From Leptolyngbyaceae cyanobacterium (GTDB taxonomy: Bacteria > Cyanobacteriota > Cyanobacteriia > Phormidesmidales > Phormidesmidaceae): a stretch of 58,357 nt of DNA. The notes under the pieces were generated by a model. That model ran no database searches, had not been told where the DNA came from, and was given only the letters and a program-made list of their open reading frames with translations. Below are positions 38,614 to 58,357 of the stretch, in pieces; the first letter of the stretch is position 1; the number at the start of each line of letters is the position of its first letter. The position numbers were made by a program, and so were the translations under genes. The stretch covers positions 1 through 58,357 of the forward strand of contig JBHJHA010000037.1 of NCBI GenBank assembly GCA_050331235.1, written 5' to 3'.

Positions 38614-38666
38614 CCAAAATTGGCCAGGCAGCGACTCGAGCCAGTTTGGTGTGTCTATCTTCCTCT

Positions 38667-39053
38667 AAACAACTACTAGGTGACAACTATGGGCTCCCAG
38701 GCGTGCCCGCACAGAGCAAAATAAACTAACCACAGAGGTTATAAACAGCGCCGCCAAAGGGGCAAGAAATTTTCTCAAGAGTCCGGCCTCAATGAGCAAG
38801 TAGATCGGCTTTTAGCCAAAGCAATTTTCAACCTTGCTCAGCATTATGAAGCAGGCAGCATTGTGCTCCCTAACTTGACTTATATTCGGGAAATTATCGA
38901 GGCAGAAATTAATGCTAGGGCTCAGTCCAAAGTTCCAGACTTTGTAGAAGGCCAGAAGCAGTATCCCAAGCTTACAGGACTCAGGTTAATCGTTGGGGCT
39001 ACAGGAGACTCCAAGCAGACATCAGTAGCAAAGCAGGTCAGGCTGGTATCGCT
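38667..39053 (+). pseudogene. cas12k: Degenerate cas12k fragment (3' region) from an older CAST
   Basis: Aligns by eye with ~52950-53339 of the full cas12k (e.g. IVEAEINARAQSKVPDFVEGQKQY region) with many substitutions and several indels. Confidence 0.9.
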
Positions 39054-39058
39054 TGAAA

Positions 39059-39091
39059 GCGCATGGATTGAGACGACTCCTCTACTGTGGA
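39059..39091 (+). CRISPR. Fossil homing crRNA unit (short repeat plus tRNA-matching spacer) of the older CAST
   Basis: GCGCATGGATTGAGAC-GACTCCTCTACTGTGGA parallels 54081-54113; spacer matches the tRNA 3' end at 14 of 17 nt. Confidence 0.8.
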
Positions 39092-39126
39092 CTCACAGGG
39101 AAGTCGTTGGATGCAATATGTTTTCA

Positions 39127-39171
39127 GCGACACTAATTCCGGAACGACGACAAATAAATCCGGATAGTAAA
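39127..39171 (+). mobile_element. Degenerate tRNA-proximal end of the older CAST
   Basis: GCGACACTAATTCCGGAACGACGACAAATAAATCCGGATAGTAAA is nearly identical to the current end (~54167-54211), with terminal GTACA changed to GTAAA. Confidence 0.85.
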
Positions 39172-39190
39172 ATTGTACAGGCAGGACACC

Positions 39191-39392
39191 TGTACGGTCC
39201 GGATTTATTTGACACTTTACGGAATTAATGTCGCCGAATTAGACTAGATCATATATACTATTTTTGAACGAATTTCTAGGCTTTGAGGCTCGTTTAGGGA
39301 GTATTTCCTGTTTTTGAGTGGGGCTAACACTCAAAAAGTCTATTCCGCATTTGAGTGTCGCCTTTTTGCAATTTCCGGAATTGAGTGTCGTC
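39191..39392 (+). repeat. tnsB-proximal transposon end with repeated TnsB-binding sites
   Basis: TCCGGATTTATTTGAC (~39198), TTACGGAATTAATGTCGC (39217-39234), TTCCGCATTTGAGTGTCGC (~39343) and TTCCGGAATTGAGTGTCG (~39373); hairpin TTTTTGAGTG/CACTCAAAAA at 39311-39337. Confidence 0.8.
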
Positions 39393-39394
39393 TT

Positions 39395-41041
39395 ATGGAG
39401 CAAGAACTCAAAAACGCCGACATACCAGTTACCCTGACGGATCAGCTAAGTTCTAGGGCTCAGAAAAGACTGGAAAGTATATTACGTCTCTTAGAACCCT
39501 GCCCATCTCGGAAGGAGTATGGACGGCGACTTCGGATTGAGGCGCAGAAACTCAATGTCAGTGTCAGGACAATGCAACGCTACATCAGTACCTGGCGCGA
39601 AAGAGGGTTGGTCGGACTCCAGGATGATGTGCGCTCTGACAAGGGCAAGTCTCGAATGGCTCCGGAGCTCACAGAACTTGCTGTCAAGCTGTTCAAGAAT
39701 CGTAAGAGAAACGGTCTTGTGCTTAATCGGCTAGATATCTACAAGCGAGTTCGGCAGAGAGCTGTTGAGTTAGGTTTACAGTCTCCTAGTCGCACAGCAG
39801 TGTACGACTTTCTCAAACCGCTCTATGAGGAAGAGGAGTCGAAGCGTTCAGTTAGAAGCTCTGGATGGCAGGGGGAGAAACTGATTCTCAATACTAAAGG
39901 GGGAAGCAATCTCGACGTCACTGAAAGCAACCAGGTCTGGCAAATTGACCATACCCCAGCAGATATCTTGGTGGTCGATGATGATGGAAATTTGCTGGGT
40001 TGTCCTTGGTTAACTGCCGTAGTTGATTCATATTCACGCTGCATTGTTGGCTTTCATATTGGTTTCGATGCGCCAAGCTCGAAGGTGGTCGCTTTAGCCC
40101 TACGTCATGCCATCTTGCCTAAGCGCTACCCAGACATTTATGGATTGAAAGAAGAGTGGGGTACGTTCGGTGTACCGCGCCATATATACACAGACAATGG
40201 CAGAGATTTTCGATCAGATCATGCCAAGCAAGTCGCCGGGCAGCTTAGATTTTCCTGGCATTATCGATCCCGTCCTCCAGAAGGTGGAATTGTTGAGCGT
40301 TTTTTCAAGACGCTCAATCAACAAGTGTGGTCAAAACTGGAAGGCTATAAGGGCTCTAACGTACAAGAGCGCCCGGAAGGAGCCGAGAAGTCTGCCATTT
40401 ACACATTAGAGCAAGTCCGTAGGGGCTTAGTCAGATACATCGTCCATCAATACAATCAGGATCTTGATCACAGAACCAACCAGAATCGCTATCAACGTTG
40501 GGAGGCGGGATTACTTCACACGCCAGTTTTACCAAGCGAACGAGAACTGGATATTTGCTTGATGAAACAGGCCACGCGCAGAGTCCAGAGACATGGACAT
40601 ATTAGCTTTGAGGGCATTACTTACAAAGGCGAAAACTTGGCAGGTAACGCGGGTAAGCAGGTCGCGCTTAGATATGACCCAGACAATCTTGGCATCCTGT
40701 ATATCTACAGCTATCACCAAAACCAGGAAATCTTTCTGTCACGAGGTTTTCCACTAATTGCAGGTTTAGAGAATCGCTCCTTAAAAGAGTGGAAAGCTGC
40801 AAAAGATGTACTTAAGAAAAACCAGAAACCTGTGACTTCTGAGAATGTGACTTCGCATTTTGAGCAAAAAGATGTCGCTCCTCAGAAGACTATGCGTCAG
40901 AGACGACGGGCAGCCCAGAAAGGGCATAAGCAAACCCTTCCAACTGTCAAAGCTGATCTGAAAAAAGCGTTTGATACTGAGACCGCAGAAAATCCCTTGT
41001 TGGATTTAGAACCTGCTTATGAAGATGACCTGTTCGAGTAA
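39395..41041 (+). CDS. tnsB: TnsB DDE transposase
   Basis: HTH (VSVRTMQRYI), RSDKG, DDE triad WQIDHT / YTDNG / GIVERFF, Mu-like C-terminus (LRYDPDN). ATG 39395 preferred. Confidence 0.93.
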   Translation: MEQELKNADIPVTLTDQLSSRAQKRLESILRLLEPCPSRKEYGRRLRIEAQKLNVSVRTMQRYISTWRERGLVGLQDDVRSDKGKSRMAPELTELAVKLFKNRKRNGLVLNRLDIYKRVRQRAVELGLQSPSRTAVYDFLKPLYEEEESKRSVRSSGWQGEKLILNTKGGSNLDVTESNQVWQIDHTPADILVVDDDGNLLGCPWLTAVVDSYSRCIVGFHIGFDAPSSKVVALALRHAILPKRYPDIYGLKEEWGTFGVPRHIYTDNGRDFRSDHAKQVAGQLRFSWHYRSRPPEGGIVERFFKTLNQQVWSKLEGYKGSNVQERPEGAEKSAIYTLEQVRRGLVRYIVHQYNQDLDHRTNQNRYQRWEAGLLHTPVLPSERELDICLMKQATRRVQRHGHISFEGITYKGENLAGNAGKQVALRYDPDNLGILYIYSYHQNQEIFLSRGFPLIAGLENRSLKEWKAAKDVLKKNQKPVTSENVTSHFEQKDVAPQKTMRQRRRAAQKGHKQTLPTVKADLKKAFDTETAENPLLDLEPAYEDDLFE

Positions 41042-41048
41042 TTGACGC

Positions 41049-41867
41049 ATGCAAAATCAAGTTGATCAAATTGCATCTGCTCTTGGGGCTTTACCAGAGC
41101 TATCTCCTGAGACTCATCAGGAGTTGGCAAGGTTATCAAAACCCCCCTATTTCCCGTTACCTAAAGTCAAGAGCTGTCATGCATTTTTAGAGGAGTGCCG
41201 TCTGGGTAACGCCCATGGTCGAATTGTGGGTGACAGTGGTGTTGGGAAAACAGTCGCAGTCAAAGCTTACGCAAAACGCCTGACACAGGTTTCAGGTGGT
41301 CAGGGGGCACTTTATGTCTTGCTAGATCCAAACTGCTCACCTAAAAGCTTTTACGAAAACATCCTTGGAGCACTTGGATTTTCCTACACCAGGGGCAGTA
41401 TCTAGGACTTACGCAACAGAACATGCCAAGTCCTATCGAGTAGGCAGATTAGGGTTCTTTTTTTGGATGAAGCCAGTTTTCTGAAGAGGGATGCGCTGGG
41501 AGAGCTTCTCTACCTGGAACAGTCTGATGCCGTGCCTTCCATTTTTCTGATTGGGACAGATCGGCTGGATGCTCTGCTAGGCCCCAACGAGGAACAAGTC
41601 AATCGCAGATATCCCCGGTATCAATATGGCCGTGTTTCTAATGCTGAACTAAAGCAATTGGTCGAACTTTGGGAGGCAAAAGTCCTCTGCCTGCCTGTGA
41701 AATCCAACCTAGCCTCGAAGAAGCCCATGAACTTGTTGATCAGCTCTACATCCGGTTGCATTGGCAAGATGGACGAAATTCTGAGAAGGGCGGCGAGAAA
41801 GGCTCTAATTTCAGGAGAGTCGAAAGTTAGCTACGAGATTCTGCAAGAAGTTGCTGGGCAGTTTTAA
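41049..41867 (+). pseudogene. tnsC: TnsC AAA+ ATPase with in-frame TAG at 41403-41405
   Basis: Walker A GDSGVGKT upstream of the stop; read-through RGSI*DLRNRT...VLFLDEA joins in frame to ORF 41463-41867 (LIGTDRL, MDEILR). Confidence 0.9.
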
Positions 41868-41870
41868 GGG

Positions 41871-42383
41871 ATGGAAAATGAATTGGCCACTCAATGGCAT
41901 CTCAGGCCGGAGCCGTTCGAGGGGGAGAGCTTTAGCCATTTTCTAGGGCGTTACTGTGCGGTGAACTATATAAGTCCCAATATCCTGGCTGAACATATTG
42001 AAGTGGGTTCAGCAGCTGTTGGGCGGTGGCGGAAGCTGAGGTATAGTCCGCCGCCCTCCGAGCGGCATTTGCAACGGTTGGCGGAAGTGACGGGAGTGAG
42101 TCCGGAGAGGCTGTTAGCGATGCTGCCTCAGGAACCAATGCAAATTGGGACGATCCGACTGTGTGCGGCCTGTTTTGGGGAAGTACCGCACCATCAAATG
42201 CATTGGCAGTATAAATCCACCCAGTTTTGCCAGAAGCACTACTTAACTCTCCTGTCCCGCTGCCCCGTTTGCAAAGCGCCTTTTCCCATACCGGCTGAGT
42301 GGACATCGGGAATTTGCCCAAGATGTGGCACTGCCTTTACTGATATGTCAAAATTTCAAAAAACAATCACGGCTCTCAGGTAG
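41871..42383 (+). CDS. tniQ: TniQ (short V-K type, zinc-binding)
   Basis: PFEGESFSHFLGR, IRLCAAC, CQKH, CPVC, CPRC; directly follows tnsC. Confidence 0.92.
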   Translation: MENELATQWHLRPEPFEGESFSHFLGRYCAVNYISPNILAEHIEVGSAAVGRWRKLRYSPPPSERHLQRLAEVTGVSPERLLAMLPQEPMQIGTIRLCAACFGEVPHHQMHWQYKSTQFCQKHYLTLLSRCPVCKAPFPIPAEWTSGICPRCGTAFTDMSKFQKTITALR

Positions 42384-42649
42384 CCACGGCGACTCGACAA
42401 TAACACTTGAATTGATGCAGCACTGCTACATTGAAATACCCTTCTCTCCCCGAAGTGTTGAAAATGGCAGAACGCCGAATCCCAGGTTACACGAGCAGTC
42501 TTTGGAAATAATTCGGGTCTTTCCGAATCTGAGAAATCCTATCTGCAGCAACGTGGCGCTATCTTTCAAGATTCACCAGGATCTGACATTTTCGATAGGA
42601 GTCCAGTAAGGCGATAGCTCTCTATTCTGTCCAGGTCTGCAAGTTGCAA

Positions 42650-42737
42650 AATCGCGCCAACTTCGGCATCTGAATCGCATCAACTTCGGCAGTCAAATCG
42701 CGCCAACTTCGGCACCTGAATCGCGTCAACTTCGGCA
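42650..42737 (+). repeat. IS21 left-end multiple terminal repeats (4 x, 23-bp period)
   Basis: AATCGC(G/A)(C/T)CAACTTCGGCA at 42650, 42673, 42696 and 42719. Confidence 0.9.
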
Positions 42738-42808
42738 GGTCATGTCTAGCCCATTTGGATGTACTCATACCCTTAGCTCAATCAAGCGTCAGCGGGATGA
42801 GAACAGCC

Positions 42809-44350
42809 ATGGGTCGAAGTGGTCAAGGAGCCAAATTGCCGATGGTGAAATTTCGAGAAATTATCCGCCTGCACGAGTTGGGGTATAACCAAAGCGAAAT
42901 CGCGCTGAGTTGCACCGTTGCTCGCTCGACAGTGCAGGACTATATCCGGCGAGCGAGTGGCAAAGGACTGAGCTATGAGGAGTTGTCTCAGCTTAGTGAT
43001 AGTGAAGCGCAAGCCCGACTGGGCAAAGGCAAACAGCCCAAAGTTGAGACAGCGATTGATTTTGCCGGTGTGCATCGTGACTTGCAAGGTAAAGGAGTGA
43101 CATTAGCGCTGCTGTGGCAAGAGGGACTTGACCAGCAGCAGTGGAATCTGAGCTACGGTCAGTTCTGTCGGCGCTATGGCCAATGGAAAGGGCAACAAAA
43201 CCTCTCAATGCGCCAGACTCATCAGGGCGGTGAAAAGATGTTTGTCGATTACTGTGGTCAAACCGTCGCTGTCTATGACCCGGTGAGTGGGGAAACGCAG
43301 ACGGCGCAAATCTTTGTGGCTTGTCTGGGAGCTAGTAACTATACCTTTGCCGAAGCGACGCCGACGCAAAGCTTGCCGCACTGGATTGGCTCCCATGAAC
43401 GAGCCTTAGCCTTCTTCGGAGGGGTGCCCAAAGCCATCGTTCCCGACAACCTCAAGTCAGGTGTCACCGACCCTTGTCGGTATGAACCGGGTGTCAACCA
43501 GAGCTATCACGCTTTTGCCGAACACTATCAGGTGGCGATTCTACCGGCTCGCTCGAAGAAGCCTCGCGACAAGTCCAAGGTAGAAAAAGCGGTGCAGGAA
43601 GTCGAACGGCAAATCTTAGCGCCGCTACGCCATCAGCGCTTTACCAGTTTCACTGACCTCAATGCCGCCATTCGAGAGCGCTTGGAGAAGCTGAATCATC
43701 GGCTGATGAAAAGCTATGGCTGCTCGCGCCGCGTGCTGTTTGAGCAAGTTGACCAACCGGCGTTGCAGCCTTTGCCGACTCATCCCTTTGTCTTTGCTCG
43801 TTGGAAGCAAGCGAAGGTGAATTTGGATTACCACCTAGAAGTGGACAAGCACTACTACTCCGTCCCCTACTGGTTCGTGCGTCGTCAGGTCAACGTCAAA
43901 GTCAGCGAAAGCTTGGTGGAAATCTTCTTTGAGCATCGCCGGATTGCTGTTCATCCCCGTTCTGGTGCTCCCTATCGTCACACAACGCTGCCGGAGCATA
44001 TGCCGCCAGAGCACTGGGCTTACCAACAACAATCGCAAGAGACCTTCCTGGTCTGGGCACAGCAGGTCGGTCCCCAAACGCACCGCCAGGTGACGGCTAT
44101 CTTTGCTGCGAAAGACCATGAGGAACAGGCCTTTCGCACCCTCAAAGGCTTGCCGTCGCTAGCTACGCGCTATGGCACTCAGCGTTTAGAAGATGCCTGT
44201 CGGCGCGCCAACACCTTTGAGCTAGTGGGCTATCGACGGCTCAAAGCCATTCTCAAGGCCCAACTGGACCGGCCTGTGCCACTTCTAGAAGTTCCTCAAG
44301 CACCCTCAGCGCGACATGACTATGTGCGCGGCGCTGATTACTACCACTGA
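42809..44350 (+). CDS. istA: IS21 transposase
   Basis: MFVDYCG, IVPDNLKSGV, KPRDKSKVEKAV, HYYSVPY, HDYVRGADYY. ATG 42809 preferred over TTG 42755. Confidence 0.92.
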   Translation: MGRSGQGAKLPMVKFREIIRLHELGYNQSEIALSCTVARSTVQDYIRRASGKGLSYEELSQLSDSEAQARLGKGKQPKVETAIDFAGVHRDLQGKGVTLALLWQEGLDQQQWNLSYGQFCRRYGQWKGQQNLSMRQTHQGGEKMFVDYCGQTVAVYDPVSGETQTAQIFVACLGASNYTFAEATPTQSLPHWIGSHERALAFFGGVPKAIVPDNLKSGVTDPCRYEPGVNQSYHAFAEHYQVAILPARSKKPRDKSKVEKAVQEVERQILAPLRHQRFTSFTDLNAAIRERLEKLNHRLMKSYGCSRRVLFEQVDQPALQPLPTHPFVFARWKQAKVNLDYHLEVDKHYYSVPYWFVRRQVNVKVSESLVEIFFEHRRIAVHPRSGAPYRHTTLPEHMPPEHWAYQQQSQETFLVWAQQVGPQTHRQVTAIFAAKDHEEQAFRTLKGLPSLATRYGTQRLEDACRRANTFELVGYRRLKAILKAQLDRPVPLLEVPQAPSARHDYVRGADYYH

Positions 44351-44379
44351 AACTGACCCACTATTCAGAGTTCTTTGCG

Positions 44380-45174
44380 ATGCAACAAACCTTAGACCAA
44401 TTGAAAACCCTCCGCCTCATCGGCTTGCTCGTTCGCGCAGCGTGCCCGAAGGGCTTAGCCTGGCAGGAACAACAGGGACAGCCTACCTATCACGACCTCA
44501 CCTTTGATGAACGCTTTGCCCTGCTCGTTGAGCGGGAGTATCTCAGGCGGCAGCACCAACGACTGCAACGACGACTCAAGCAGGCACAGCTTTCTACTCC
44601 AGCGACTCTGGAGGCAGTTGATTTTCATGTGCCACGCGGCTTGAAGAAAACTCAGTTCCTGGAATGGGCTCAGGGCCAGTGGTTGGGCCAGCACCTTAAT
44701 CTCATCTTGATGGGGCCGACAGGCGTGGGAAAAACCTTCTTGGCTTGTGTTTTAGCCGACCATCTCTGCAAGCAGGGCTATACCGTGCGCTATTTCAAAA
44801 CTGCTGAACTGCTCTCAGAATTGAAGTTCGCCAAACTCGATGGCTCGTTCCCCAAACTGCGCAAACAACTCGCAACCTTTGACCTCATTATTCTCGATGA
44901 GTGGCTGCGCGATGCCCTCGCGCCCAATGATGCCCGCGAAGTTCTCGACTTCCTCGATGACCGCTATCGACGTTCCTCTTGTCTGCTCGCAACCCAATTC
45001 CCCATCAACCAGTGGCATCCCCAAATTCAAGACCCGACGTTAGCCGATGCTATTCTTGACCGCTTGGTGCATGACTCCCTTCGCCTGGCCCTCAAAGGTG
45101 AGTCCATGCGCAAGCTCACCAGCCCGCTCAAGGGCGAAACTGATCTGATTGCAGAGGAAAACGCCATGTCTTAG
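44380..45174 (+). CDS. istB: IS21 helper ATPase
   Basis: GPTGVGKT, IILDEW, TLADAILDRLVH, LKGESMR. Confidence 0.92.
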   Translation: MQQTLDQLKTLRLIGLLVRAACPKGLAWQEQQGQPTYHDLTFDERFALLVEREYLRRQHQRLQRRLKQAQLSTPATLEAVDFHVPRGLKKTQFLEWAQGQWLGQHLNLILMGPTGVGKTFLACVLADHLCKQGYTVRYFKTAELLSELKFAKLDGSFPKLRKQLATFDLIILDEWLRDALAPNDAREVLDFLDDRYRRSSCLLATQFPINQWHPQIQDPTLADAILDRLVHDSLRLALKGESMRKLTSPLKGETDLIAEENAMS

Positions 45175-45314
45175 AAACGCCGATCACCGTTGTCGTCAAC
45201 TGACGACTATTAGACGACAATGAAATTGACCTGCCCAATGACCGCGAAATTTTCTCAGGTTTTCAGGGGTGCCGAAGTTGATGCAACTCGGTGCCGAAGT
45301 TACGAGAATACGCA

Positions 45315-46581
45315 TGGGTCCGCTCGCTAACGTATAAGGCCCGTACCGATGTTCTTGATGCTCGACATAGAGTTCGTTGTCGAAGAGTCCCCACCACAGC
45401 ACCACGGTTTCTCCTGCTAAATCCGGGTCTACTTCATACGTCGCCCCGGCTACCGTGACCCGAGCATCACTGCCAACTTTTCGGGTTTCCGGTTCACGCG
45501 CAAAGGTGCAAAAGCGCTCCCAATTGCACATGCCCCGAATCCCAGCCGCGGGTAATCGGCTGACCCAGTCTTCCCTCCGGGAATGGGGCTCGCTGCGATG
45601 TTTCAGGCTGTTGTAATGCAGTAAGAACCGACATAACCAGGCGTTCGCCTCCACTTCCGTCTCCGGCTCATGGAGGTGATAGAGGGTCTCGTGCATTTCC
45701 TTGACGCTGCGAAACGGGCGTTCGACTTTCCCTTTCGAGCGAGCGGTCACCCGCCGACCATCCTTGCCTTGGGGCATGTGAGTTCGCACCTCAATGCCCA
45801 GCGCATCCATCACGCTTTGGAAAACCTGGCTCCGCGCAATGGGGCCGTTATCCATGTAGAGCATCTGAGGAATTCCCTGGAAGGGGAAATCCTCCACCGA
45901 TTTAGGCGACATGGCCGTAAACAGAAACCGTAAGGCCGCCTCCACATCCTCTCCATACACCCCGTGGTATTCCTGATAAGCCACCCCACTGCGGTCATCC
46001 ACGACGCTGTAGAGCATCAGCAGCGGACGCCCTCGAGCGGGGTCCATCCAGACGGGGGTTTTGACATGCTTAAGATCCGACGGACTGAGATCAAAGTGCC
46101 AACAGTCATTGCTGTGTTCCGCCTGGAAATGAACCACAGGCGGTTGGCGAGTCATCCGCGCCTGGTCATAGCCCCACTGCTGCAGATAGCGATTCACAGT
46201 CGTTTTCTTCAGCAATCCTGGAGGGGCCTGAATCAGTCCCTCCGGGGTATCTACCCCGTGCTCTTCCAACAGCCGAATTGCTTGCACGGTTGAGAGATGG
46301 CGGCCTTTGCCATTGCAGGTGCGTACTTTCAGGGCGGCAATCGCCTCACAGTAGCGTTCCATATTTAGTTTTGACATCACCCGGGGGCTGCCCGCATCGT
46401 CACGGCGAGCCGAACGAACCCATTTTTGCTCTCGCAGCGTGCGATATAAGGTGGCCTCTGAAACGTCATAGAGCTGCGCCGTTTTCTGCACCAACTGCCG
46501 ACGTTCGGCACTGCGGACGGGCAATTGATCCAAGCGTCGCCGTAAGTCCAGTAAGGTTTCGGATGGAATCTGCTTGCCCAC
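45315..46581 (-). pseudogene. DDE (rve, Mu/TniA-like) transposase, 3' truncated by IS21
   Basis: WHFDLS, LYMDNG and KGKVERPF catalytic motifs; the ORF tail below 45315 is read from the IS21 end. Confidence 0.82.
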
Positions 46582-46593
46582 GGCTCCCCCTGG

Positions 46594-47217
46594 TTATCCC
46601 GACGAGGGACGAGAGTGAATCTGGCGACGCTTGAGCCAGTCGTAAAGCGTCGAAGGTGCACAGTCCACTAATTTGGCAATCGACCGCTTACTAATCCCTT
46701 TGGCCAAGTAATCCCGAATCTCGGTTTCCTTATCATCCAGCTTCAAATGCTGGGACTGACTGCCTTTCGGGCGGCCCAGTAATTTCCCCTCGGCCTTACG
46801 TTTCGCGAGGGCCTCAGTGGTGCGCAGGGAAATAAACTCCCGCTCAATCTCCGCGGCCAGACCTAAGACCGTAGCTGTAATACGACTTTGCATCGAGCTG
46901 TCCAGGACCATCTGTTGCTTGGCGATATGCACCGTAATCTCCCGCTGCATGGCACATTCCAGCATTTCTAGAACTTGTAGAGTGGAGCGGGCCATGCGGC
47001 TGATTTCGGCAAACACCACAGTGTCACCAGTCTGGGCGGTTTCCATCAGGAGTTGACCAACCGCTCGTTCACGCCATTTCACGCGACCTGAGACGCTATC
47101 CTCGACAAACTGTAGGGGACCTAACTGATGCGTATTGGCGTACTCCAAAATGCCGTGGCGCTGATTAGCTCCGTCTTGATGTTCACTGGAGACGCGGAGA
47201 TAGGCGTAGGCGGCCAT
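46594..47217 (-). CDS. Serine recombinase (resolvase) with C-terminal HTH
   Basis: YAYLRVSS, EISRMAR, AEIEREFISLRT, GRP, HTH (PSTLYDWL). Confidence 0.92.
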   Translation of the reverse strand: MAAYAYLRVSSEHQDGANQRHGILEYANTHQLGPLQFVEDSVSGRVKWRERAVGQLLMETAQTGDTVVFAEISRMARSTLQVLEMLECAMQREITVHIAKQQMVLDSSMQSRITATVLGLAAEIEREFISLRTTEALAKRKAEGKLLGRPKGSQSQHLKLDDKETEIRDYLAKGISKRSIAKLVDCAPSTLYDWLKRRQIHSRPSSG

Positions 47218-47253
47218 AAATGTAACCGTTTCCAACAAAAACGGCTTTGAGGC

Positions 47254-47315
47254 TTAATTCAAACAGATACGTTCTAATTTAAACCTAAAGAAGCGCACAT
47301 ATCTGTTTGGATTAA
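47254..47315. promoter_or_regulatory. Putative res site / resolvase binding sites
   Basis: TTAATTCAAACAGATA ... TATCTGTTTGGATTAA (15/16 inverted repeat, 30-bp gap) in AT-rich DNA just upstream of the resolvase. Confidence 0.55.
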
Positions 47316-47452
47316 ACCATCGTTAAATTCAAATATGCAGTCGTTGAAATACTCAAAGATTCAAAAGTTACATTGACTGTCCTGCTAAAGATTTCTGATT
47401 CGTCAAACATCATTCTTCACTAATCTTGTCTCCTTATTAAGAGGTTCATGCC

Positions 47453-48865
47453 ATGGTAAACCGATCGCAGAAAGTCATCCGACGCGCTTTAAAACCCTTC
47501 TTTTACAGCCTGATGGGAATGCTAATGGTTTTGGCGATCGCGGGGCTTTCCCAAATCGGCCTTGCCCAAGCGCCCTCCCGCGTGCTGTTTGAAAACGTGC
47601 GCATTTTTGATGGCACGTCCCCCGGTCTGTCTGACCCGGCCTATGTGCTGGTGGAAAACAATAAAATTCAGACTATCTCAGACGAACCCCTGGCTGTGAC
47701 GGCTGTAGGAGATTTGACCATTGTTGATGGCAATGGTCGCACCTTAATGCCAGGACTCATTGATGCCCATTATCACTTCAACGTTGCCACCTTAGCCCTT
47801 GAAGATCTGTTAGACCCCAATATTTCTAACGAAGCCGCCCGTGAAGCCATTCTTCAGACCGCCCCCATCGAAGCCAGCAACTATTTGATGCGCGGCTTCA
47901 CGAGTGGGCGCGATGTCGGGGGGAATGTGTTTGACCTCAAGCGAGACATTGATGCAGGTGAACTGGTGGGACCACGCATTTGGCCCAGTGGTGCTTCGAT
48001 TAGTCAAACCAGTGGTCATGGTGATTTTCGCTTTCCTGATGAGCTCCCCCGAACGCCGACATCGCCCCTCTCTCGTACAGAGGTGCTCGGGGAAACCATC
48101 ATTGCCGATGGTGTGCCTGAAGTGCTGCGTCGAGTGCGCGAGCAGCTCAGACAAGGGGCCTCCCAAATCAAGGTTCACGCTGGTGGCGGTGTTACCTCAT
48201 CTTTTGACCCCCTGGATGTTTTGCAATATACCGAGGAAGAGTTACAGGCGGCGGTCGATGCGGCGGCTGATTGGAACACCTATGTGGCGGTGCATGCCTT
48301 TACGCCAGCTTCGATTCAGCGGGCGATCAAGGTGGGTGTCAAAACCATTGAACATGGCCATTTAATCGATGAGGAAACTGCTCAGCTGATGGCTGAGACG
48401 GGGACTTGGCTGAGCATGCAGCCCGTGCTAGATGACGAAGATGCGCTCGTTCCCGAAGGCTCGGCACCGGTGAACCGGGAAAAGTATTTGCAAACGACTG
48501 AGGGTACCGAAATTACCTACCGCTTAGCCAAGCAATACAACGTCAAAACGGCTTGGGGCACGGATGTGCTGTTTGACCCTCGGCTCGCTTCTCGTCAGAT
48601 GTTCCAGCTCACCAAAATGGTGCGTTGGTATGAACCCTGGGAAGTGCTGAAAATGGCGTCCCATGACAATGCCGAAATGCTGGCTTTATCTGGCCCACGC
48701 AATCCTTATCCTGGCAAGTTAGGCGTTGTCGAGGAAGGGGCACTGGCCGATCTGTTGCTGGTCGAGGGTGATCCCACCGAGGACATCACTGTGCTGGAAG
48801 ATGCTGAGCAGAATCTACTGGTGATCATGAAAGACGGCAAGATTTACAAGAATCTGCTGTCGTAA
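47453..48865 (+). CDS. Secreted metal-dependent amidohydrolase (prolidase-like)
   Basis: Signal peptide; PGLIDAHYH, QIKVHAGGG, AVHA, EHG, GTD, GALADLL. Confidence 0.88.
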   Translation: MVNRSQKVIRRALKPFFYSLMGMLMVLAIAGLSQIGLAQAPSRVLFENVRIFDGTSPGLSDPAYVLVENNKIQTISDEPLAVTAVGDLTIVDGNGRTLMPGLIDAHYHFNVATLALEDLLDPNISNEAAREAILQTAPIEASNYLMRGFTSGRDVGGNVFDLKRDIDAGELVGPRIWPSGASISQTSGHGDFRFPDELPRTPTSPLSRTEVLGETIIADGVPEVLRRVREQLRQGASQIKVHAGGGVTSSFDPLDVLQYTEEELQAAVDAAADWNTYVAVHAFTPASIQRAIKVGVKTIEHGHLIDEETAQLMAETGTWLSMQPVLDDEDALVPEGSAPVNREKYLQTTEGTEITYRLAKQYNVKTAWGTDVLFDPRLASRQMFQLTKMVRWYEPWEVLKMASHDNAEMLALSGPRNPYPGKLGVVEEGALADLLLVEGDPTEDITVLEDAEQNLLVIMKDGKIYKNLLS

Positions 48866-48883
48866 CGGCGGACCCGGAGAAAG

Positions 48884-50512
48884 GTGATGAAAAAGCGCTT
48901 GGTCTTTCTCCTGAGCCTATGCCTTGGCCTGGTGCTCAGCACGCTGCTAGCGGCACCCACACCGAGTCTGGCTCAGGATGTCCGCCCGATTACCTGGAAT
49001 GATTTGCTGGAGCAAACCGCGATCGAGTTTGACGACCCGTTCGCGGCGCTCAGCGAAGAGCAACTGTACCAGGTGTCAATGATTGCCCGATATCGCCTGC
49101 TACGGCAACAAGGCAAAGCGGGATCGAATACCCCATCTGAAACAGAGCGGGAATATTTAGCGACGTTGCAGGCCCAGAGCATTGACGTGGATTGGTTGCT
49201 GGCCCAGCGAGAGCGGGTGATGCAGGCTCGGAAACAGCAGTTGAGTGCGCCTGCGACGGTGAGTGGGGAGCGGGTCGCGATTTCTGGCTATGTCTTACCC
49301 TTGACCCAAAAGCGGCAACGCGTGACGGAATTTTTGCTAGTGCCCTGGCTCGGAGCCTGTATCCACACGCCCCCGCCCCCGCCCAACCAGATTGTTCATG
49401 TGACCTTTCCCCAAGGCATGGCGGTTCACGATCGCTTTGACCCCATGACGATTGCGGGGTTACTCGATACCGCCTTTGCATACCACGAGCTTTTTTTAGT
49501 GGATGGTAGCCGGGATGTGGGGGTGACCTACACCCTGGCGGCTGAGGCGGTGACGGCCTATGTCCCTGGCGAGACAGATCCGCTGTCTCAAGTGGTGATT
49601 CCGGAGGAAGCTCTGGCTGGACAACATTTTTGGCAGCGCTGGCAAACCCAGGTATCTTTACTGTTTACGAACACGATGGCTGACATTCAGGGCCAACCTC
49701 TGTCCCGGGCGTTTCTCATCGGCGTGGTCATTGCTTTTGCCTATGGTGTGATCCATACCCTTGGCCCCGGCCATGGCAAGGCGGTGATTGTTTCGTATTT
49801 TGTCGGTGAGGGCGGCAGTCTGCAACGGGGGCTATGGATGGGAGTGCGCATTGCTGTGCTGCATGTGTTGGCTGCGGTGGTGCTGGTGGTCGCGACCGAT
49901 GTCGTGGTACAGCAGGTGGGCGGCAGTGCCGCAGGGAACTTTCGCATCATGCGCCTGGTGAGCTATGGCGCGATTGCTAGCATTGGCGGTTGGATGTTGT
50001 GGCAGGCGCTACGGACTTATCGAAACGCGGCTCCCTTGCCCCAAACTATGGCATCGGCTGCTTTAGAACAGACGCCCACCGAGACCATTATCTATCCCCG
50101 CCTGAGCCAAGCCGTTCTAGCGCCGCCACCGGACAAAACTATCTTTAATCACACTGCGAATTGGGGCTGCTCCTGTCTCAGTTGCCTTCCCTCCACCAAA
50201 ACTGGGACATGGTTATCGATGGCGGTTGGGGCGGTGCCCTGTAGCGGCGCGTTAATTGTGCTCCTCTACGGTTTGGCGAACAATATGCTGTGGGTTAGCG
50301 TCACCCTAGTCGTCGCCATTTCAGTCGGCATGGCGATCGCCCTTTCCACCGTTGGAGTTCTCGCGCTTCTCGGTCGACAAACGCTTGATCAACGCCTGCT
50401 GGGCAGTGCTCGCCAACGCACCATCGCCGCTGGTCTCAGGCTCATGGGCGCAATCGCTGTGTTCTCCGTAGGTCTTTTTTTATTTGTAGTGACCTTAGCA
50501 CCTACAGCATGA
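48884..50512 (+). CDS. DUF3299-like domain fused to an RcnA/NiCoT-type nickel/cobalt transporter domain
   Basis: FLLVPWLGACIHTPPPPPNQ, then HTLGPGHGK and VPCSGAL with multiple TM helices. Confidence 0.78.
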   Translation: MMKKRLVFLLSLCLGLVLSTLLAAPTPSLAQDVRPITWNDLLEQTAIEFDDPFAALSEEQLYQVSMIARYRLLRQQGKAGSNTPSETEREYLATLQAQSIDVDWLLAQRERVMQARKQQLSAPATVSGERVAISGYVLPLTQKRQRVTEFLLVPWLGACIHTPPPPPNQIVHVTFPQGMAVHDRFDPMTIAGLLDTAFAYHELFLVDGSRDVGVTYTLAAEAVTAYVPGETDPLSQVVIPEEALAGQHFWQRWQTQVSLLFTNTMADIQGQPLSRAFLIGVVIAFAYGVIHTLGPGHGKAVIVSYFVGEGGSLQRGLWMGVRIAVLHVLAAVVLVVATDVVVQQVGGSAAGNFRIMRLVSYGAIASIGGWMLWQALRTYRNAAPLPQTMASAALEQTPTETIIYPRLSQAVLAPPPDKTIFNHTANWGCSCLSCLPSTKTGTWLSMAVGAVPCSGALIVLLYGLANNMLWVSVTLVVAISVGMAIALSTVGVLALLGRQTLDQRLLGSARQRTIAAGLRLMGAIAVFSVGLFLFVVTLAPTA

Positions 50513-50519
50513 TGACTTG

Positions 50520-50724
50520 CCCATTTGCAGGCGAATGGGAATTCCCGTGTAAGCGCCTTATTTGCAAATAATATGGGTCAGACCGGATGTTTGCAGGTTC
50601 ATTTGCAGGAATGCGGGTCCATTCTCAAATAATGTGGGTCCAAACCCTATTTTCATTTGCAAATAATGTGGGTCGAAAATGCGATGTTTGCGGGTTGAGG
50701 CGATTATGTTTGCAGGTCGCAACA
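50520..50724 (-). repeat. Terminal end of a nested Mu/Tn7-superfamily transposon with multiple transposase-binding repeats
   Basis: Ends ...GGTCGCAACA (TGTTGCGACC on minus); repeated ATTTGCAAATAAT(A/G)TGGGTC and ATGTTTGC(A/G)GGT motifs. Confidence 0.65.
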
Positions 50725-50951
50725 CTTAGAGAACTTTCGTTTACTCAATTACGCGGAGATTCTCCAGGTCATCATTCTCTTTGGCGCAGTTCTTGGCAGC
50801 CCGGAAGAGCTGGCCACGGTTTCTGGACTTTACACTCCGGAAGAATAAACCAACTAGAATCAGATTTCCTTAAGTAATGTCGTAAATTGACTGATGGAAA
50901 TCAGTTCTTCCCAGATCTTGAACTTAACTCCAAGCTGGCTAAATAGTACTG

Positions 50952-51527
50952 ATGAGTATTCAAATTCAATCGTGTATTCACACCGAAGTTGACGATATTC
51001 ATGACCGCGAGTCAGGTTTTTGTATCGCGGGCAAAATCCTTCATGTCGAATGCGACCTTGACCGCGATGATCTCATAGAAGTACAGGTCGGTCATATTGT
51101 GGCCCATCAGATTGTCGGCACCGTTGATGAGCTGACAATTTGGGCTGACAGTATCAGTCATGATTTATCTGATGCTGTTGTATGGCTACAGGATCTTTGT
51201 CGGAGCAAAGATGATTTAGCTTGCTTGAGTAGTTATTTATTTGTCGAAGAGCTTGAAATCAATCCTAAATGGCGTAGACGCGGAATTGGCCTCAAAGCCA
51301 CCGCTGCCTTTTTGGAGGTACATGCCAACAGAGGCTTTGTCTTTTTGAAACCGATGCCTCTTCATAAGCCAGACTCACCCGAAGAAAACATCCGGGAAAT
51401 TGAAAGGCTGAGAAGATTTTGGCAAAGATTGGGACTTGACCATTTCGATAGCGAAGCTAATTTCCTTTGGAATTCAGCTTGGCAATGTCCCAGGGAGTTG
51501 GCAGGAACTGAGGATCTTCTACCGTAG
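50952..51527 (+). CDS. GNAT-like acetyltransferase-fold protein
   Basis: LFVEELEINPKWRRRGIG acetyl-CoA motif A and LRRFWQRLGL. Confidence 0.62.
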   Translation: MSIQIQSCIHTEVDDIHDRESGFCIAGKILHVECDLDRDDLIEVQVGHIVAHQIVGTVDELTIWADSISHDLSDAVVWLQDLCRSKDDLACLSSYLFVEELEINPKWRRRGIGLKATAAFLEVHANRGFVFLKPMPLHKPDSPEENIREIERLRRFWQRLGLDHFDSEANFLWNSAWQCPRELAGTEDLLP

Positions 51528-51590
51528 ATTGCTTGACAGCTGCGGTATGGGGAAGGATAGAATTTTCGGAAAAGTTAGTACGCATAAACT

Positions 51591-53486
51591 ATGGGCCAGA
51601 AGACAATTCGCTGCCGCTTAATTGCTACGGAGGAAAGCCGTCAAGCAATCTGGCAACTAATGGCTGAACGCAACACTCCCCTAATCAATGAAGTGTTACA
51701 GCAGATTCCAAAACATCCAGACTTTGCCAAGTGGCAACAGAGAGGAAGTTTGCCAGACAGTGCAGCTAGGGTGATCATCGATAGGCTAAAAAATGACCCA
51801 CGTTTCAGCGGTCAGCCTTCCTACCACTACATCTCAGCCCAGAAGCAGGTGACCTATACCTTCAAGAGTTGGCTTACTATTCAACGTCGCAAACAGTGGA
51901 AACTAGAGGGCAAACGTCTGTGGTTAGAGATTTTGCAATCTGATACAAAGTTGGCAGAGCTCGCAAAATGCAGCATAGATAAACTGCATACAGAGGCGGA
52001 AAAGATCCTGCGTCGAGTGACGGGCCAAGATTCCTTTAAGCGCCTTCTGGAGCGGTACAAGAGTGAAAGGAACCTGCTTTGTAAGTGCGCCATCGCCTAT
52101 TTACTCAAGCGAAACTTGAATATTGAGGCTGAGGAAAACCCCGAACAGCTAGAAAAGCGACACCATAAAACTGAGGTCCGGATCAAGCGCTTGGAAATCC
52201 AACTTCAAGCAAGTCTTCCAAAAGGCCGAGATCTATTAGGAGAACGTCAAGCAGTAGCCCTCGCCCAAAGTGTTTTAGCTCCCCCTGAAGACGATCAGAG
52301 CTACGAAATCTGGAGAAATGCCCTAACAAGGGAGCCTGCTCAGCTTCCCTTCCCAATACTTTATGAGACTTCCGAATGCTTGCAATGGAAAAGAAATGAG
52401 CATGGGCGATTGAGTGTTAGCTTCAGTGGTTTGAGTGAACATATCTTGAAGGTTTACTGTGATATGCCACATCAGCACTGGTTTAATCGCTTCTTTGAAG
52501 ACCAAGAGACCAAAAGATCAGGAAGTGATCAGCACTCTGCGGGCTTATTCACCTTGCGCTCAGCTAAGTTGTCATGGAGACCTGATCCAAAGCATGTCAA
52601 CGCTTCTGCTCCTTGGAATCGTTACTATCTGAATCTTTCCTGCACGGTTGATACCCGTTTGTGGACACAGGAAGGAACTCAAACCGTCATCCAAGAAAAG
52701 GCTGCAAATACAGCAGTAAAGCTTGAGTCGATGCGAGAGAAAAGCAATCTCAGCCCAACGCAAGAAGGATATATCAGGCGGTTGGAGTCTACTTTAACCA
52801 AACTACAAATACCCTATCCTCGCCCCAGTCGAAGACCTTATTCAGGGAAAGCGAATATCCTGGTTGGAGTCAGCATGGGACTAGATAAGCCAGCGACAGT
52901 TGCAGTCGTGGACGCCCTTACTAGTGAGGTATTGACTTATCAATCAACCAAAAAACTATTAGATGACAACTATCGGCTCCTGAGGCGTGCCCGCACAGAG
53001 CAAAATAAAGCTAGCCACAGAGGTCACAAACAGCGCCTCAGGGGCGGCAAGAACTTTGCTCAAGAGTCTGACATCAGTAAGCAGGTAGATCGGCTCTTAG
53101 CGAAAGCAATTGTCAACCTCGCTCAGCATTATGAAGCAGGCAGTATTGTGCTCCCTAACTTGGCTTATATTCGTGAAATTGTCGAGGCGGAAATAAATGC
53201 TAGAGCTCAATCCAAAGTTCCAGACTTCGTAGAAGGCCAGAAGCAGTATGGCAAAGCTTACAGAACTCAAGTACATCGTTGGGGCTATGGGAGACTGCAA
53301 GAAGCCATTAGTAGCAAAGCAGGTCAGGCTGGCATCGCTATCGAGATAACTCAACAGGGTTCTTCAGGCAATTAAGCTGAAAAAGCTAAGGATTTGGCTT
53401 TAAGAGCTTTTGAAAGCCGCAAAACCGATGAAGTCAAGCTTGGCAATAAGAATTCTGATATCGCCACCGTGAGAGTGACAGGGTAA
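51591..53486 (+). pseudogene. cas12k: Cas12k (type V-K effector) with premature in-frame TAA at 53373-53375
   Basis: TIRCRL, MAERNTPLINE, LPKGRD, PFPILYET, LFTLRSA, VDTRLWTQEGT, GVSMGLDKPATVAV, VHRWGYGRL; the conserved EKAKDLALRAFESR lies after the stop, ending TAA 53484-53486 (631 codons). Confidence 0.93.
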
Positions 53487-53544
53487 ATTCTCCGTAATTA
53501 GCTATTTGAGGACCAAGTAGCAATCCAGCAAGCTAGTATATATG

Positions 53545-53787
53545 TACAAAAGCGCCGCAGATCATGCGCAAGCCTCTGTTCTGTGAAAAATGAGGGTTTG
53601 TATGACTGTGTAATAACAGTCATACTTTCTGGCCCTGGTAGCTGACCACTCCGATGCTGCTGTTGAAAGTGAACTCGCCTAGACTTGGACACCTAACAAC
53701 AGGAAAGGGGCGCACCCAGCAAGAGAGGACGGACTTACTGTAGTGTTGGCTGCTGAATCAACTCCGAACAAGGAGTAATCCATGCAC
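53545..53787 (+). ncRNA. Type V-K tracrRNA
   Basis: Recognisable V-K tracr blocks AGCGCCGCAG..CATG, GCCTCTG, AAATGAGGGTT, GACTGT..ACAGTC, CTTTCTG.CCCTGGTAGCTG, GATGCTGC, GCGC.CCCAGCAA, GCTGAATCA; 3' anti-repeat TCCATGCAC. Boundaries approximate. Confidence 0.88.
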
Positions 53788-53986
53788 TCATACCCAAATA
53801 ATACCCGCCGCGAACCCTGAGCAAGGGAATTTTTCCTGGAAGGTTCGCGCAAGCGTAGAAGCTTTGAGCAGTGGTCTTTTCACATGTTCTTTGCTTTCAG
53901 GTTCAAGCCAAATCTATCCGCCTTAATTGAGGTTCGCGATTGGAAAGGCTGGAGCCGTTCATTTGAAAGGGTTCTAAATGAGCGCC

Positions 53987-54113
53987 GACGCCATGAGCTA
54001 TCCAGGCTCATGAGGATTGAAACTGAAGAATTTAGTAAAGGAGTACTCATATACTTACTGAGTACTCCTTTACTATTGAAGTGCATGGACTGAAACGACT
54101 CCTGTACTCTGGA
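53987..54113 (+). CRISPR. Minimal CRISPR locus: one full 37-nt repeat, a hairpin segment, then a short repeat plus homing spacer
   Basis: Repeat GACGCCATGAGCTATCCAGGCTCATGAGGATTGAAAC (53987-54023); short repeat GTGCATGGACTGAAAC (54081-54096); spacer GACTCCTGTACTCTGGA (54097-54113) matches the tRNA 3' end 16/17; leader-like GCGAACC...GGTTCGC upstream. Confidence 0.85.
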
Positions 54114-54147
54114 ATCGTAGGTTGTTGCTAGATGTATCAAGCCTTTA

Positions 54148-54211
54148 GCGACATTAATTCCGGAAAGCGACATTAATTCCGGAACGACGACAAATAAATC
54201 CGGATCGTACA
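54148..54211 (-). repeat. tRNA-proximal CAST end with three tandem TnsB-binding sites
   Basis: GCGACATTAATTCCGGAA x2, then CGACAAATAAATCCGGA and terminal CGTACA. Confidence 0.9.
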
Positions 54212-54241
54212 ACACCCCGATCATCAGCAGGGCAAATGAAG

Positions 54242-54314
54242 TCCAGGGTACAGGAGTCGAACCTGTCTAAGGCGAATTATGAGTTCGCTGCCTAATCCGC
54301 TCGGCCAACCCTGG
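54242..54314 (-). tRNA. tRNA with CAT anticodon (probably tRNA-Ile2, lysidine type; Met not excluded)
   Basis: CCAGGGT acceptor stem, GCGAA-CTCATAA-TTCGC anticodon arm, GGTTCGACTCC T arm, discriminator A, no encoded CCA. Confidence 0.92.
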
Positions 54315-57796: not shown

Positions 57797-58357
57797 CCAT
57801 AGCAAACCGCAGATAGGTTGAGCTGATCCTAGGTATCAACAAAGGCCTGGTCAACGACGGCTCGGAAAGATTCACCGGCCTGAATTTTCTTTCGCATTCG
57901 ATTCTTCAAGACGAACCACCAATGCTCAATCGGATTGAGGTCGGGCGAATACGGTGGCAAGTACAGTAGACGACCCCCCGCTTGCTCTACCAGCGATTGA
58001 ATCCGTCCGCCTTTGTGGAAGGTCGCGTTATCGCAAATGATCACCGTTCCCGGCGCTAAGGTCGGCAGCAATGCCTGCTCCAACCAGGTCTCGAAAACGT
58101 TGCGGTTGCAGTAGCCTTCGTAAGTCATCGGGGCTAGCATGGTCTCCTGGCATAAGGCTGCGATAAAACTGACCCGCTCGCGACGACGGCCTCGTTGCTC
58201 GGCGGCAAACCGCTCACCGCGCTTGCACCACCCGTAGCTGTAGTCCTCTGTATTATCGATGCCCGCCTCATCGAGATAGACACAGTTGTGTGGCTCAAGT
58301 CGTTCCATCTCAACTAGAAACGCTTGACGCTTGTTGGCATCCCGTTCGTGGCAGGCG
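57794..58357 (-). mobile_element. IS630-family insertion sequence (partial, runs off window end)
   Basis: Transposase on the minus strand ends at 57829; the element end plausibly abuts the TA at 57794-57795. Confidence 0.72.
57829..58357 (-). CDS. IS630-family transposase, DDE portion (5' partial)
   Basis: YLDEAG, ICDNATFH, YLPPYSPDLNPIEHWW; the frame stays open to the window edge. Confidence 0.9.
   Translation of the reverse strand, partial: ACHERDANKRQAFLVEMERLEPHNCVYLDEAGIDNTEDYSYGWCKRGERFAAEQRGRRRERVSFIAALCQETMLAPMTYEGYCNRNVFETWLEQALLPTLAPGTVIICDNATFHKGGRIQSLVEQAGGRLLYLPPYSPDLNPIEHWWFVLKNRMRKKIQAGESFRAVVDQAFVDT

Follow-up and report, generated by a model that had tools for sequence, protein, structure and literature searches.

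The window, meaning the whole 58,357-nt stretch of contig JBHJHA010000037.1 analysed here (Leptolyngbyaceae cyanobacterium, assembly GCA_050331235.1), carries a CRISPR-associated transposon (CAST) of type V-K. The element extends over ~15 kb from TGT at 39191 to ACA at 54211 and has ACACC on both sides (39186-39190 and 54212-54216); a preliminary description of this DNA had already recognised the two ends and the 5-bp duplication, as well as tnsB, tnsC, tniQ and cas12k, all of which are in place. The tnsB-tnsC-tniQ genes sit at the right end of the element, and the end on the tRNA side (54211) is the left end under the published naming convention. Cas12k matches profile NF038191 with 736 bits against a cut-off of 150, and no TnsA match was found among the 12 open reading frames (ORFs) scanned in the element and in the remnant of an older sister element beside it. 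The RuvC triad of Cas12k is inactive: S428 and P522 correspond to S452 and P546 of ShCas12k, the protein of the Scytonema hofmanni CAST (ShCAST), and the third position, Pro in 12 of 18 relatives, is a stop here. The 17-nt homing guide, the adjoining tRNA, the proximal left end and the distance of 47 nt to the protospacer-adjacent motif (PAM) are all as in type V-K, and the place of the element beside its own protospacer may be taken as a trace of past RNA-guided transposition only. The locus alone would be ordinary; it is the lineage-wide, structurally matched changes in PAM and transposon ends that make a directly testable lead.

The TnsB lineage to which the element belongs comprises 19 clusters at 65-100% identity, the next homologues standing at 52% or less, and the Cas12k lineage comprises 21 clusters at 58-100%, with the next at 48% or less. 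Each set forms one side of a branch with 100% support (quick and FastTree methods on subsets of 69 and 45 rows, the Cas12k tree being the quick one), and the preliminary description had considered the CAST possibly orthogonal; near-identity to a characterised CAST, which would have spoken against this, was not seen, the window TnsB and Cas12k being only distant homologues of the Scytonema structures. Lineage TnsB and Cas12k sit together in the L003/L027 element, which has the duplication TTAGC at both ends, and again on G460:C28. Among 401 sampled genomes of the class, of which 57 had a match, lineage TnsB occurs only in the window's own genome (assembly 95.5% complete) and in one other. Close relatives occur in the filamentous cyanobacteria CCP2, CCT1, CCP5, Tildeniella torsiva and Nodosilinea sp. 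LEGE 07298, and ordinary Cas12k elements are present as well in the carriers G376, G460, G463 and G495. The window's own genome has an ordinary tnsB-tnsC-tniQ set (L215, G000:C82:1783-5030) whose tnsC is split and which has a right end of its own; it is cut by the contig start, and no cas12k is assembled with it. A metagenome scan gave two Cas12k loci, both outside the lineage.

Residue 78 of Cas12k and the PAM

To set the PAM register, the protospacer was read from the 17 nt that follow the end of the repeat, which is the convention of the literature; loci without a protospacer match were left out, as were L033 and L090, which have three 5' mismatches and no tRNA called. In all eight readable lineage homing sites (the window, L027, L213, L216, L218, L220, L223 and L231) the protospacer is preceded by TTC, with five different tRNA targets and always at the T-loop; a ninth site, in L229, is masked by N. 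The other loci have GTN in 21 of 21 cases (GTA 15, GTT 3, GTG 3), and wherever position 78 of Cas12k is visible among them (16 of the 21) it is Arg. This residue is the one that, in the accessible text of Xiao et al. (10.1101/2021.07.07.451486), contacts G(-3) in ShCas12k, with T287 and R421 contacting -2/-1. Arg is absent from position 78 in 21 of 21 lineage Cas12k proteins, which have Trp (20) or Tyr (1, the window protein), while it is present in 97 of 99 others; the two exceptions, both Trp, are the sister group (100% support; P0159 and P0197, likewise with Trp at 78). The readers of -2/-1, T260 and R397, are kept in 21/21 lineage proteins. The apparent PAM shift, a stronger feature than those it lists, was missed by the preliminary description.

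Going by these alignments, the lineage Cas12k likely targets TTC instead of GTN. We consider it probable that this is a distinct V-K lineage, in which a Cas12k without R78 likely reads a T-rich PAM (TTC or TTN) and TnsB likely reads an end sequence of its own; the aromatic residue would accept or prefer T at -3, with T260 and R397 still reading -2/-1. Every assayed Cas12k in the literature examined has a GTN-type PAM, and the literature search, which had subscription papers and patents outside its scope, turned up none that describes a TTC or TTN PAM for a Cas12k.

This assignment depends on the register, and the PAM would still be GTT if the last C of the repeat were guide base 1 of an 18-nt guide and W/Y78 went on reading G. 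GTT indeed lies one base upstream in 7/8 homing sites (GGTTC or AGTTC contexts), and the last C of the repeat matches the target in every case. However, the reported length of homing guides is 17 nt, counted after GAAA(G/C), and we assign the terminal C to the repeat because lineage array repeats all end GAAAC. Systems with R78 that target the same loop retain GAAAG, and their C is part of the spacer: in the accessible portion of the table of Ziemann et al. (2025, PMC12416283), seven systems with Arg78 target this T-loop with spacers starting CGA and none starts one base later, one of them sharing the tRNA-Leu site of L223. Array spacer 3 of L213 matches the tnpB of an IS200/IS605-type element (L239:1360-1396); its best homologue (20/20 in the seed, 29/32 overall) is preceded by CTTC, so that -4 is C and not G. 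Finally, the sole PAM-reading residue that has changed is the reader of the sole base that has changed, and we regard a retained GTT PAM as unlikely.

Only slightly less improbable, to our minds, is that the PAM became relaxed to NTN when R78 was lost, TTC only mirroring the sites supplied by the spacer-acquisition machinery. An aromatic side chain may stand there without reading any base, and a type I-D CAST accepts GTN and TTN both; yet D-loop GTA/GTT sites are used by 0/8 lineage loci as against 21/21 others, and the near fixation of Trp suggests a contact.

Several observations weigh against a T-rich PAM or limit what can be drawn from the sites. The homing sites are not independent, because all stand at the invariant tRNA GTTCGA, with GTT one base upstream, and one tRNA-Pro site accounts for four of the eight; for three or four of the tRNA-Pro guides, matching extends beyond base 17. 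Only one array spacer of ~27 has a credible target, which is a homologue and not the exact source, and weaker matches of the same L213 spacer are preceded by other bases. The sites do not separate TTC, TTN and NTN. Nor was an adaptation module with a TTC preference found: host arrays contain repeats with lineage-like ends (identical in their first and last bases), one of these arrays lying beside a full type I-D operon, and type I-D is reported as GTN. Plasmid and phage searches with array spacers gave no credible target, no match came from five scans of viral contigs with single spacers, and order-wide searches with the arrays of L218, L220, L216 and L027 returned nothing beyond repeats and weak matches; when host I-D-type arrays were used as queries, repeats swamped the results. 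We rejected type I-C adaptation as the origin of the spacers: of 173 genomes of the order 6 have Cas8c, and among the lineage carriers one has it. The 10 lineage carriers checked include 4 with Cas1, which lies beside arrays that are I-D-like or type III-like, or beside none; no Cas1 was found in the window's own genome.

Transposon ends, guide RNAs and known systems

All seven TnsB sites of the element lie close to the consensus given in the preliminary description, and the suggestion made there, that they differ from the ShCAST type, extends to the whole lineage. At the termini, positions 9-12 read CC(G/A)G in 13 of 13 lineage ends, as against mostly (A/G)AC(A/T/G) in 32 non-lineage ends (a set that includes L083 and L215, both mis-picked), with positions 15-17 and 20-23 common to both; lineage TnsB sites have TCC(G/A)G in place of T(A/G)AC. 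In the accessible text of Tenjo-Castano et al. (10.1101/2022.08.05.502904), the base contacts of ShTnsB comprise one set formed by R77/R81 and R99/R106 and another formed by K154/R158, and R158A abolishes activity. The R158 position is R in 99 of 101 other TnsB proteins, but D in 14, A in 2, S in 1 and N in 1 of the 18 lineage proteins (Asp in the window), which retain R77, R99 and R106 in 18/18 and R81 in 15/18. From the nucleotide spacing in that paper we infer that K154/R158 read the changed site positions; the equivalents of both residues would then have been lost together with the change of site bases 9-12. The C-terminal tail of TnsB, which docks on TnsC, is also of another type (EDDLFE in the lineage vs EDYGW/F). 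Because the sites are changed in 13/13 lineage ends and the base-reading helix of TnsB is changed too, orthogonality to ShCAST ends is plausible at the level of sequence. A third end type, with CGCA at 9-12 and a GTA PAM, occurs in L034, L088 and L089, which are deep-branching Cas12k elements; divergent ends alone are therefore not unique, as other V-K lineages (the CGCA type, V2) diverge too.

The RNA components are readable to the extent of a tracrRNA, a homing unit and one full repeat (53987-54023); the preliminary description had them all readable, but there is no spacer-bearing array. The predicted tracrRNA (~53551-53787; column identity averages 87% over 6 lineage loci) is V1-sized at ~235 nt, lies downstream of cas12k and has an anti-repeat. 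The homing spacer matches the CAT-anticodon tRNA at 16/17 positions, a match this good arising in 1 of 20,000 random trials. Predicted pairing with the 3' anti-repeat is -15.9 kcal/mol for the homing repeat vs -6.4 for the array repeat, and such a perfect match would favour the homing guide over array guides. Repeat and anti-repeat are altered together in the lineage, and the V1 pattern of GGTTGAAAG as repeat end with anti-repeat AACCCnCCC is not found in it. A 15-nt anti-repeat scan of viral contigs returned ~550 stretches, taken as unspecific. PAM-to-end distances in the lineage are 43, 47, 52, 53, 58, 62, 64 and 64 nt (other loci 56-65; published range 46-82). L218 alone among 8 lineage loci checked has a tracrRNA insertion and, beside cas12k, a long divergent regulator-like ORF (L218:4035-4673). 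Solo lineage-type repeats in L235, L236 and L233, away from any cas12k seen, are probably relics.

ShCAST (V-K_V1; PDB 8rdu, 8ea3, 7n3o, 7svw) resembles the window in gene set and order without tnsA, dead RuvC, tracrRNA size, 17-nt tRNA homing guide, TGT...ACA termini and 5-bp duplication. A structure model of the window Cas12k (alignment-based, pLDDT 88.5, replacing a single-sequence model of pLDDT 42.7; DNA is in neither) matches ShCas12k with an E-value of 7.5e-53 and 46% identity. Unlike ShCAST, the lineage has Tyr/Trp for R78, TTC before the protospacer, TCC(G/A)G sites, a different TnsB tail and PAM-to-end distances of 43-64 nt vs 60-66; in the window TnsB R158 is Asp, the repeat ends GGATTGAAAC and anti-repeat 2 differs. 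In the standard register a GTN PAM read by R78 is absent, and so is TnsB R158 with T(G/A)AC sites, both features of V-K_V1. To view the element as an ordinary V1 transposon with drifted ends, functionally the same as ShCAST, one can point to the same gene order, the V1-length tracrRNA and a PAM-to-end distance within the published range; set against the concerted changes on one long branch (Cas12k 78, TnsB 158, TnsB tail, sites, repeat and anti-repeat), we find this view very improbable.

V-K_V2, in the accessible text of Ziemann et al., is an earlier example of a subgroup that is self-contained, having ends and an anti-repeat of its own and a shorter distance (54 nt), and is described there with a 450-nt tracrRNA, a 306-aa TnsC, a TnsB domain longer by 20 aa, Arc_2 regulators and occurrence in Nostocales. 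Membership in V2 was rejected, the window having a tracrRNA of ~235 nt, a TnsC of 272 aa, no TnsB insertion and no regulator in this copy; no lineage motif was found in the shortened cells in which that paper's supplement was searched. In the accessible part of supplementary table 1 of PMC11906591, MG64-37, MG64-39 and MG64-40 have Cas12k with Trp at 78 and are lineage members, MG64-39 with the lineage repeat and MG64-40 with a near-identical tracrRNA start; the three are listed there without screening, ends or Tns entries, and the two active systems of that work gave GTN and rGTN. Beyond these three unscreened members, no description of the lineage was found in the literature search. The homing units in the available text of Hsieh and Peters (10.1101/2021.02.06.429022) are like that of the window (17-nt guide after ~13 nt of repeat, tRNA target, opposite orientation), with GTN in nearly all; the exceptions in its supplement may include lineage members. 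PAM variation in 10.1101/2021.08.16.456562, as far as its accessible text goes, concerns -5, -4 and -1 only.

History of this copy and what the lineage may mean

In the window, tnsC is interrupted by an in-frame stop at codon 119 and cas12k by one at codon 595, and the preliminary description held that two single-codon repairs could restore the element. The cas12k stop stands in an 8.9-kb contig of sequencing run X1 without any differing letter (among runs X1, X2 and X3, X1 alone covers it). The tnsC stop does not: position 41403 is A in contigs of runs X1 and X2, both samples of one study (X1 depth 7.3, possibly the window's source; X2 depth 3), giving the lysine codon found in the closest relative, L001, and the window's T is supported by no contig. 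The tnsC stop was accordingly rejected as a genuine lesion. In tnsB, the X1 base at 40646 also differs from the window and gives a near-invariant Tyr. These T/A differences are likely, and most simply, low-depth assembly errors, with a minor allele as the other possibility. Only the cas12k stop looks real, because the tnsC stop is absent from the X1 and X2 contigs, and this copy is likely disabled by one lesion, not two. The stop falls at the position of ShCas12k P619 and deletes the last conserved helix, present in 18/18 complete lineage relatives aligned, and so likely cost this copy its targeting; tnsB, tnsC and tniQ are likely intact. A second full cas12k was not found in the window's own genome. 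Decay affects other lineage copies as well (tnsB of L003 cut at 521 aa, stops in L002 tnsB and G460 cas12k), and full-length natural Cas12k relatives exist in the lineage, among them P0123, P0131 and the L027 protein.

Features of the element and its surroundings. Positions are those of the window; the tracrRNA is predicted and its ends are approximate.
Feature	Position	Strand	Remarks
Older sister element remnant	38654..39179	+	3' part of cas12k, homing unit (repeat, spacer) and a left end carrying two TnsB sites
Target-site duplication, copy 1	39186..39190	+	ACACC
Right end (tnsB side)	39191..39393	+	TGT terminus, four TnsB sites
Right-end TnsB sites	39198-39213, 39217-39234, 39343-39361, 39373-39391
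tnsB	39401..41041	+	open frame; DDE triad D185/D267/E301 retained
tnsC	41049..41867	+	272 codons; codon 119 stop in window only
tniQ	41871..42383	+	open, 170 aa
Cargo: IS21-family element (istA, istB)	42645..45314	+	terminal repeats; NF033546, NF038214 above cut-off
Cargo: DDE transposase interrupted by IS21, and serine resolvase	45315..47238	-	nested truncated transposon
Cargo: amidohydrolase and DUF3299-NicO membrane protein	47453..50512	+
191-aa ORF	50952..51527	+	no family match; 39% homologue in L003 element cargo
cas12k	51591..53486	+	NF038191; stop at codon 595
tracrRNA	53551..53787	+	V1 length; altered 3' anti-repeat 53775-53787
Lone CRISPR repeat	53987..54023	+	37 nt, ends GAAAC; rest of array gone
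Inverted repeat	54033..54075		perfect, 17 bp; between solo repeat and homing unit
Truncated homing repeat	54081..54096	+
Homing spacer	54097..54113	+	17 nt; 16/17 match to tRNA
Left end	54148..54211	-	three TnsB sites
Target-site duplication, copy 2	54212..54216	+	ACACC
Target tRNA	54241..54314	-	anticodon CAT; called Met by ARAGORN, may be Met or Ile2
Homing protospacer	54242..54258	-	47 nt from PAM to left end
Inferred PAM	54259..54261	-	TTC, directly 5' of protospacer

In an Rfam scan the tRNA was the sole match, and a promoter scan listed none for cas12k. The inverted repeat at 54033-54075 was not seen in the relatives compared. The cargo contains a serine resolvase, and V-K elements are normally without one; the nested transposon may extend over 45315-50724, with repeats at 50520-50724 as its possible far end. 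A transposase-like ORF near the window end (57829-58308) looks IS630-like by eye. In the Tildeniella element, the cargo (L212:6980-18055) looks, from ORF starts, like a type I restriction-modification cluster.

The remnant of the older sister shares 87% nt identity with the present element over 390 nt of cas12k and 94% over 47 nt of left end; its spacer aims at the same protospacer with 2 mismatches to the working spacer, and its left end is 53 or 60 nt from the PAM. The present element inserted between the remnant and the tRNA, beside the older left end, and afterwards lost its array and, through the cas12k stop, likely its targeting. It lies 6-13 nt from the remnant's left end despite near-identical TnsB sites, a double insertion that target immunity would be expected to oppose with ends 94% alike; dual insertions are known for divergent V-K elements. 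By analogy with ShCAST work, Cas12k with tracrRNA and the 17-nt guide would bind the tRNA T-loop/acceptor sequence, TniQ and the TnsC filament would fix the insertion distance, and TnsB would join the left end downstream by a replicative route with a 5-bp duplication.

A wider reading, which we put forward tentatively and would not quite favour, is that of a third V-K subgroup in which a single residue (R78 to W/Y) determines a natural T-rich PAM, co-resident with ShCAST-type systems in the same genomes and insulated from them at four interfaces: the PAM, the crRNA:tracrRNA duplex, TnsB-end recognition and the contact of the TnsB tail with TnsC. The paired changes (Cas12k 78 with PAM -3, TnsB 154/158 with site bases 9-12) provide a direct test of the published structures, and the TTC sites strain the proposal that type I-D adaptation, which selects GTN, feeds V-K arrays. 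The GTN-type PAM limits the target choice of the most compact CASTs; a T-rich PAM, together with own ends and an own guide scaffold, would if true allow wider targeting and two V-K systems in one cell. The lineage would then offer an independent second integrase of the single-effector kind, as well as a means of switching the PAM of ShCas12k through one residue.

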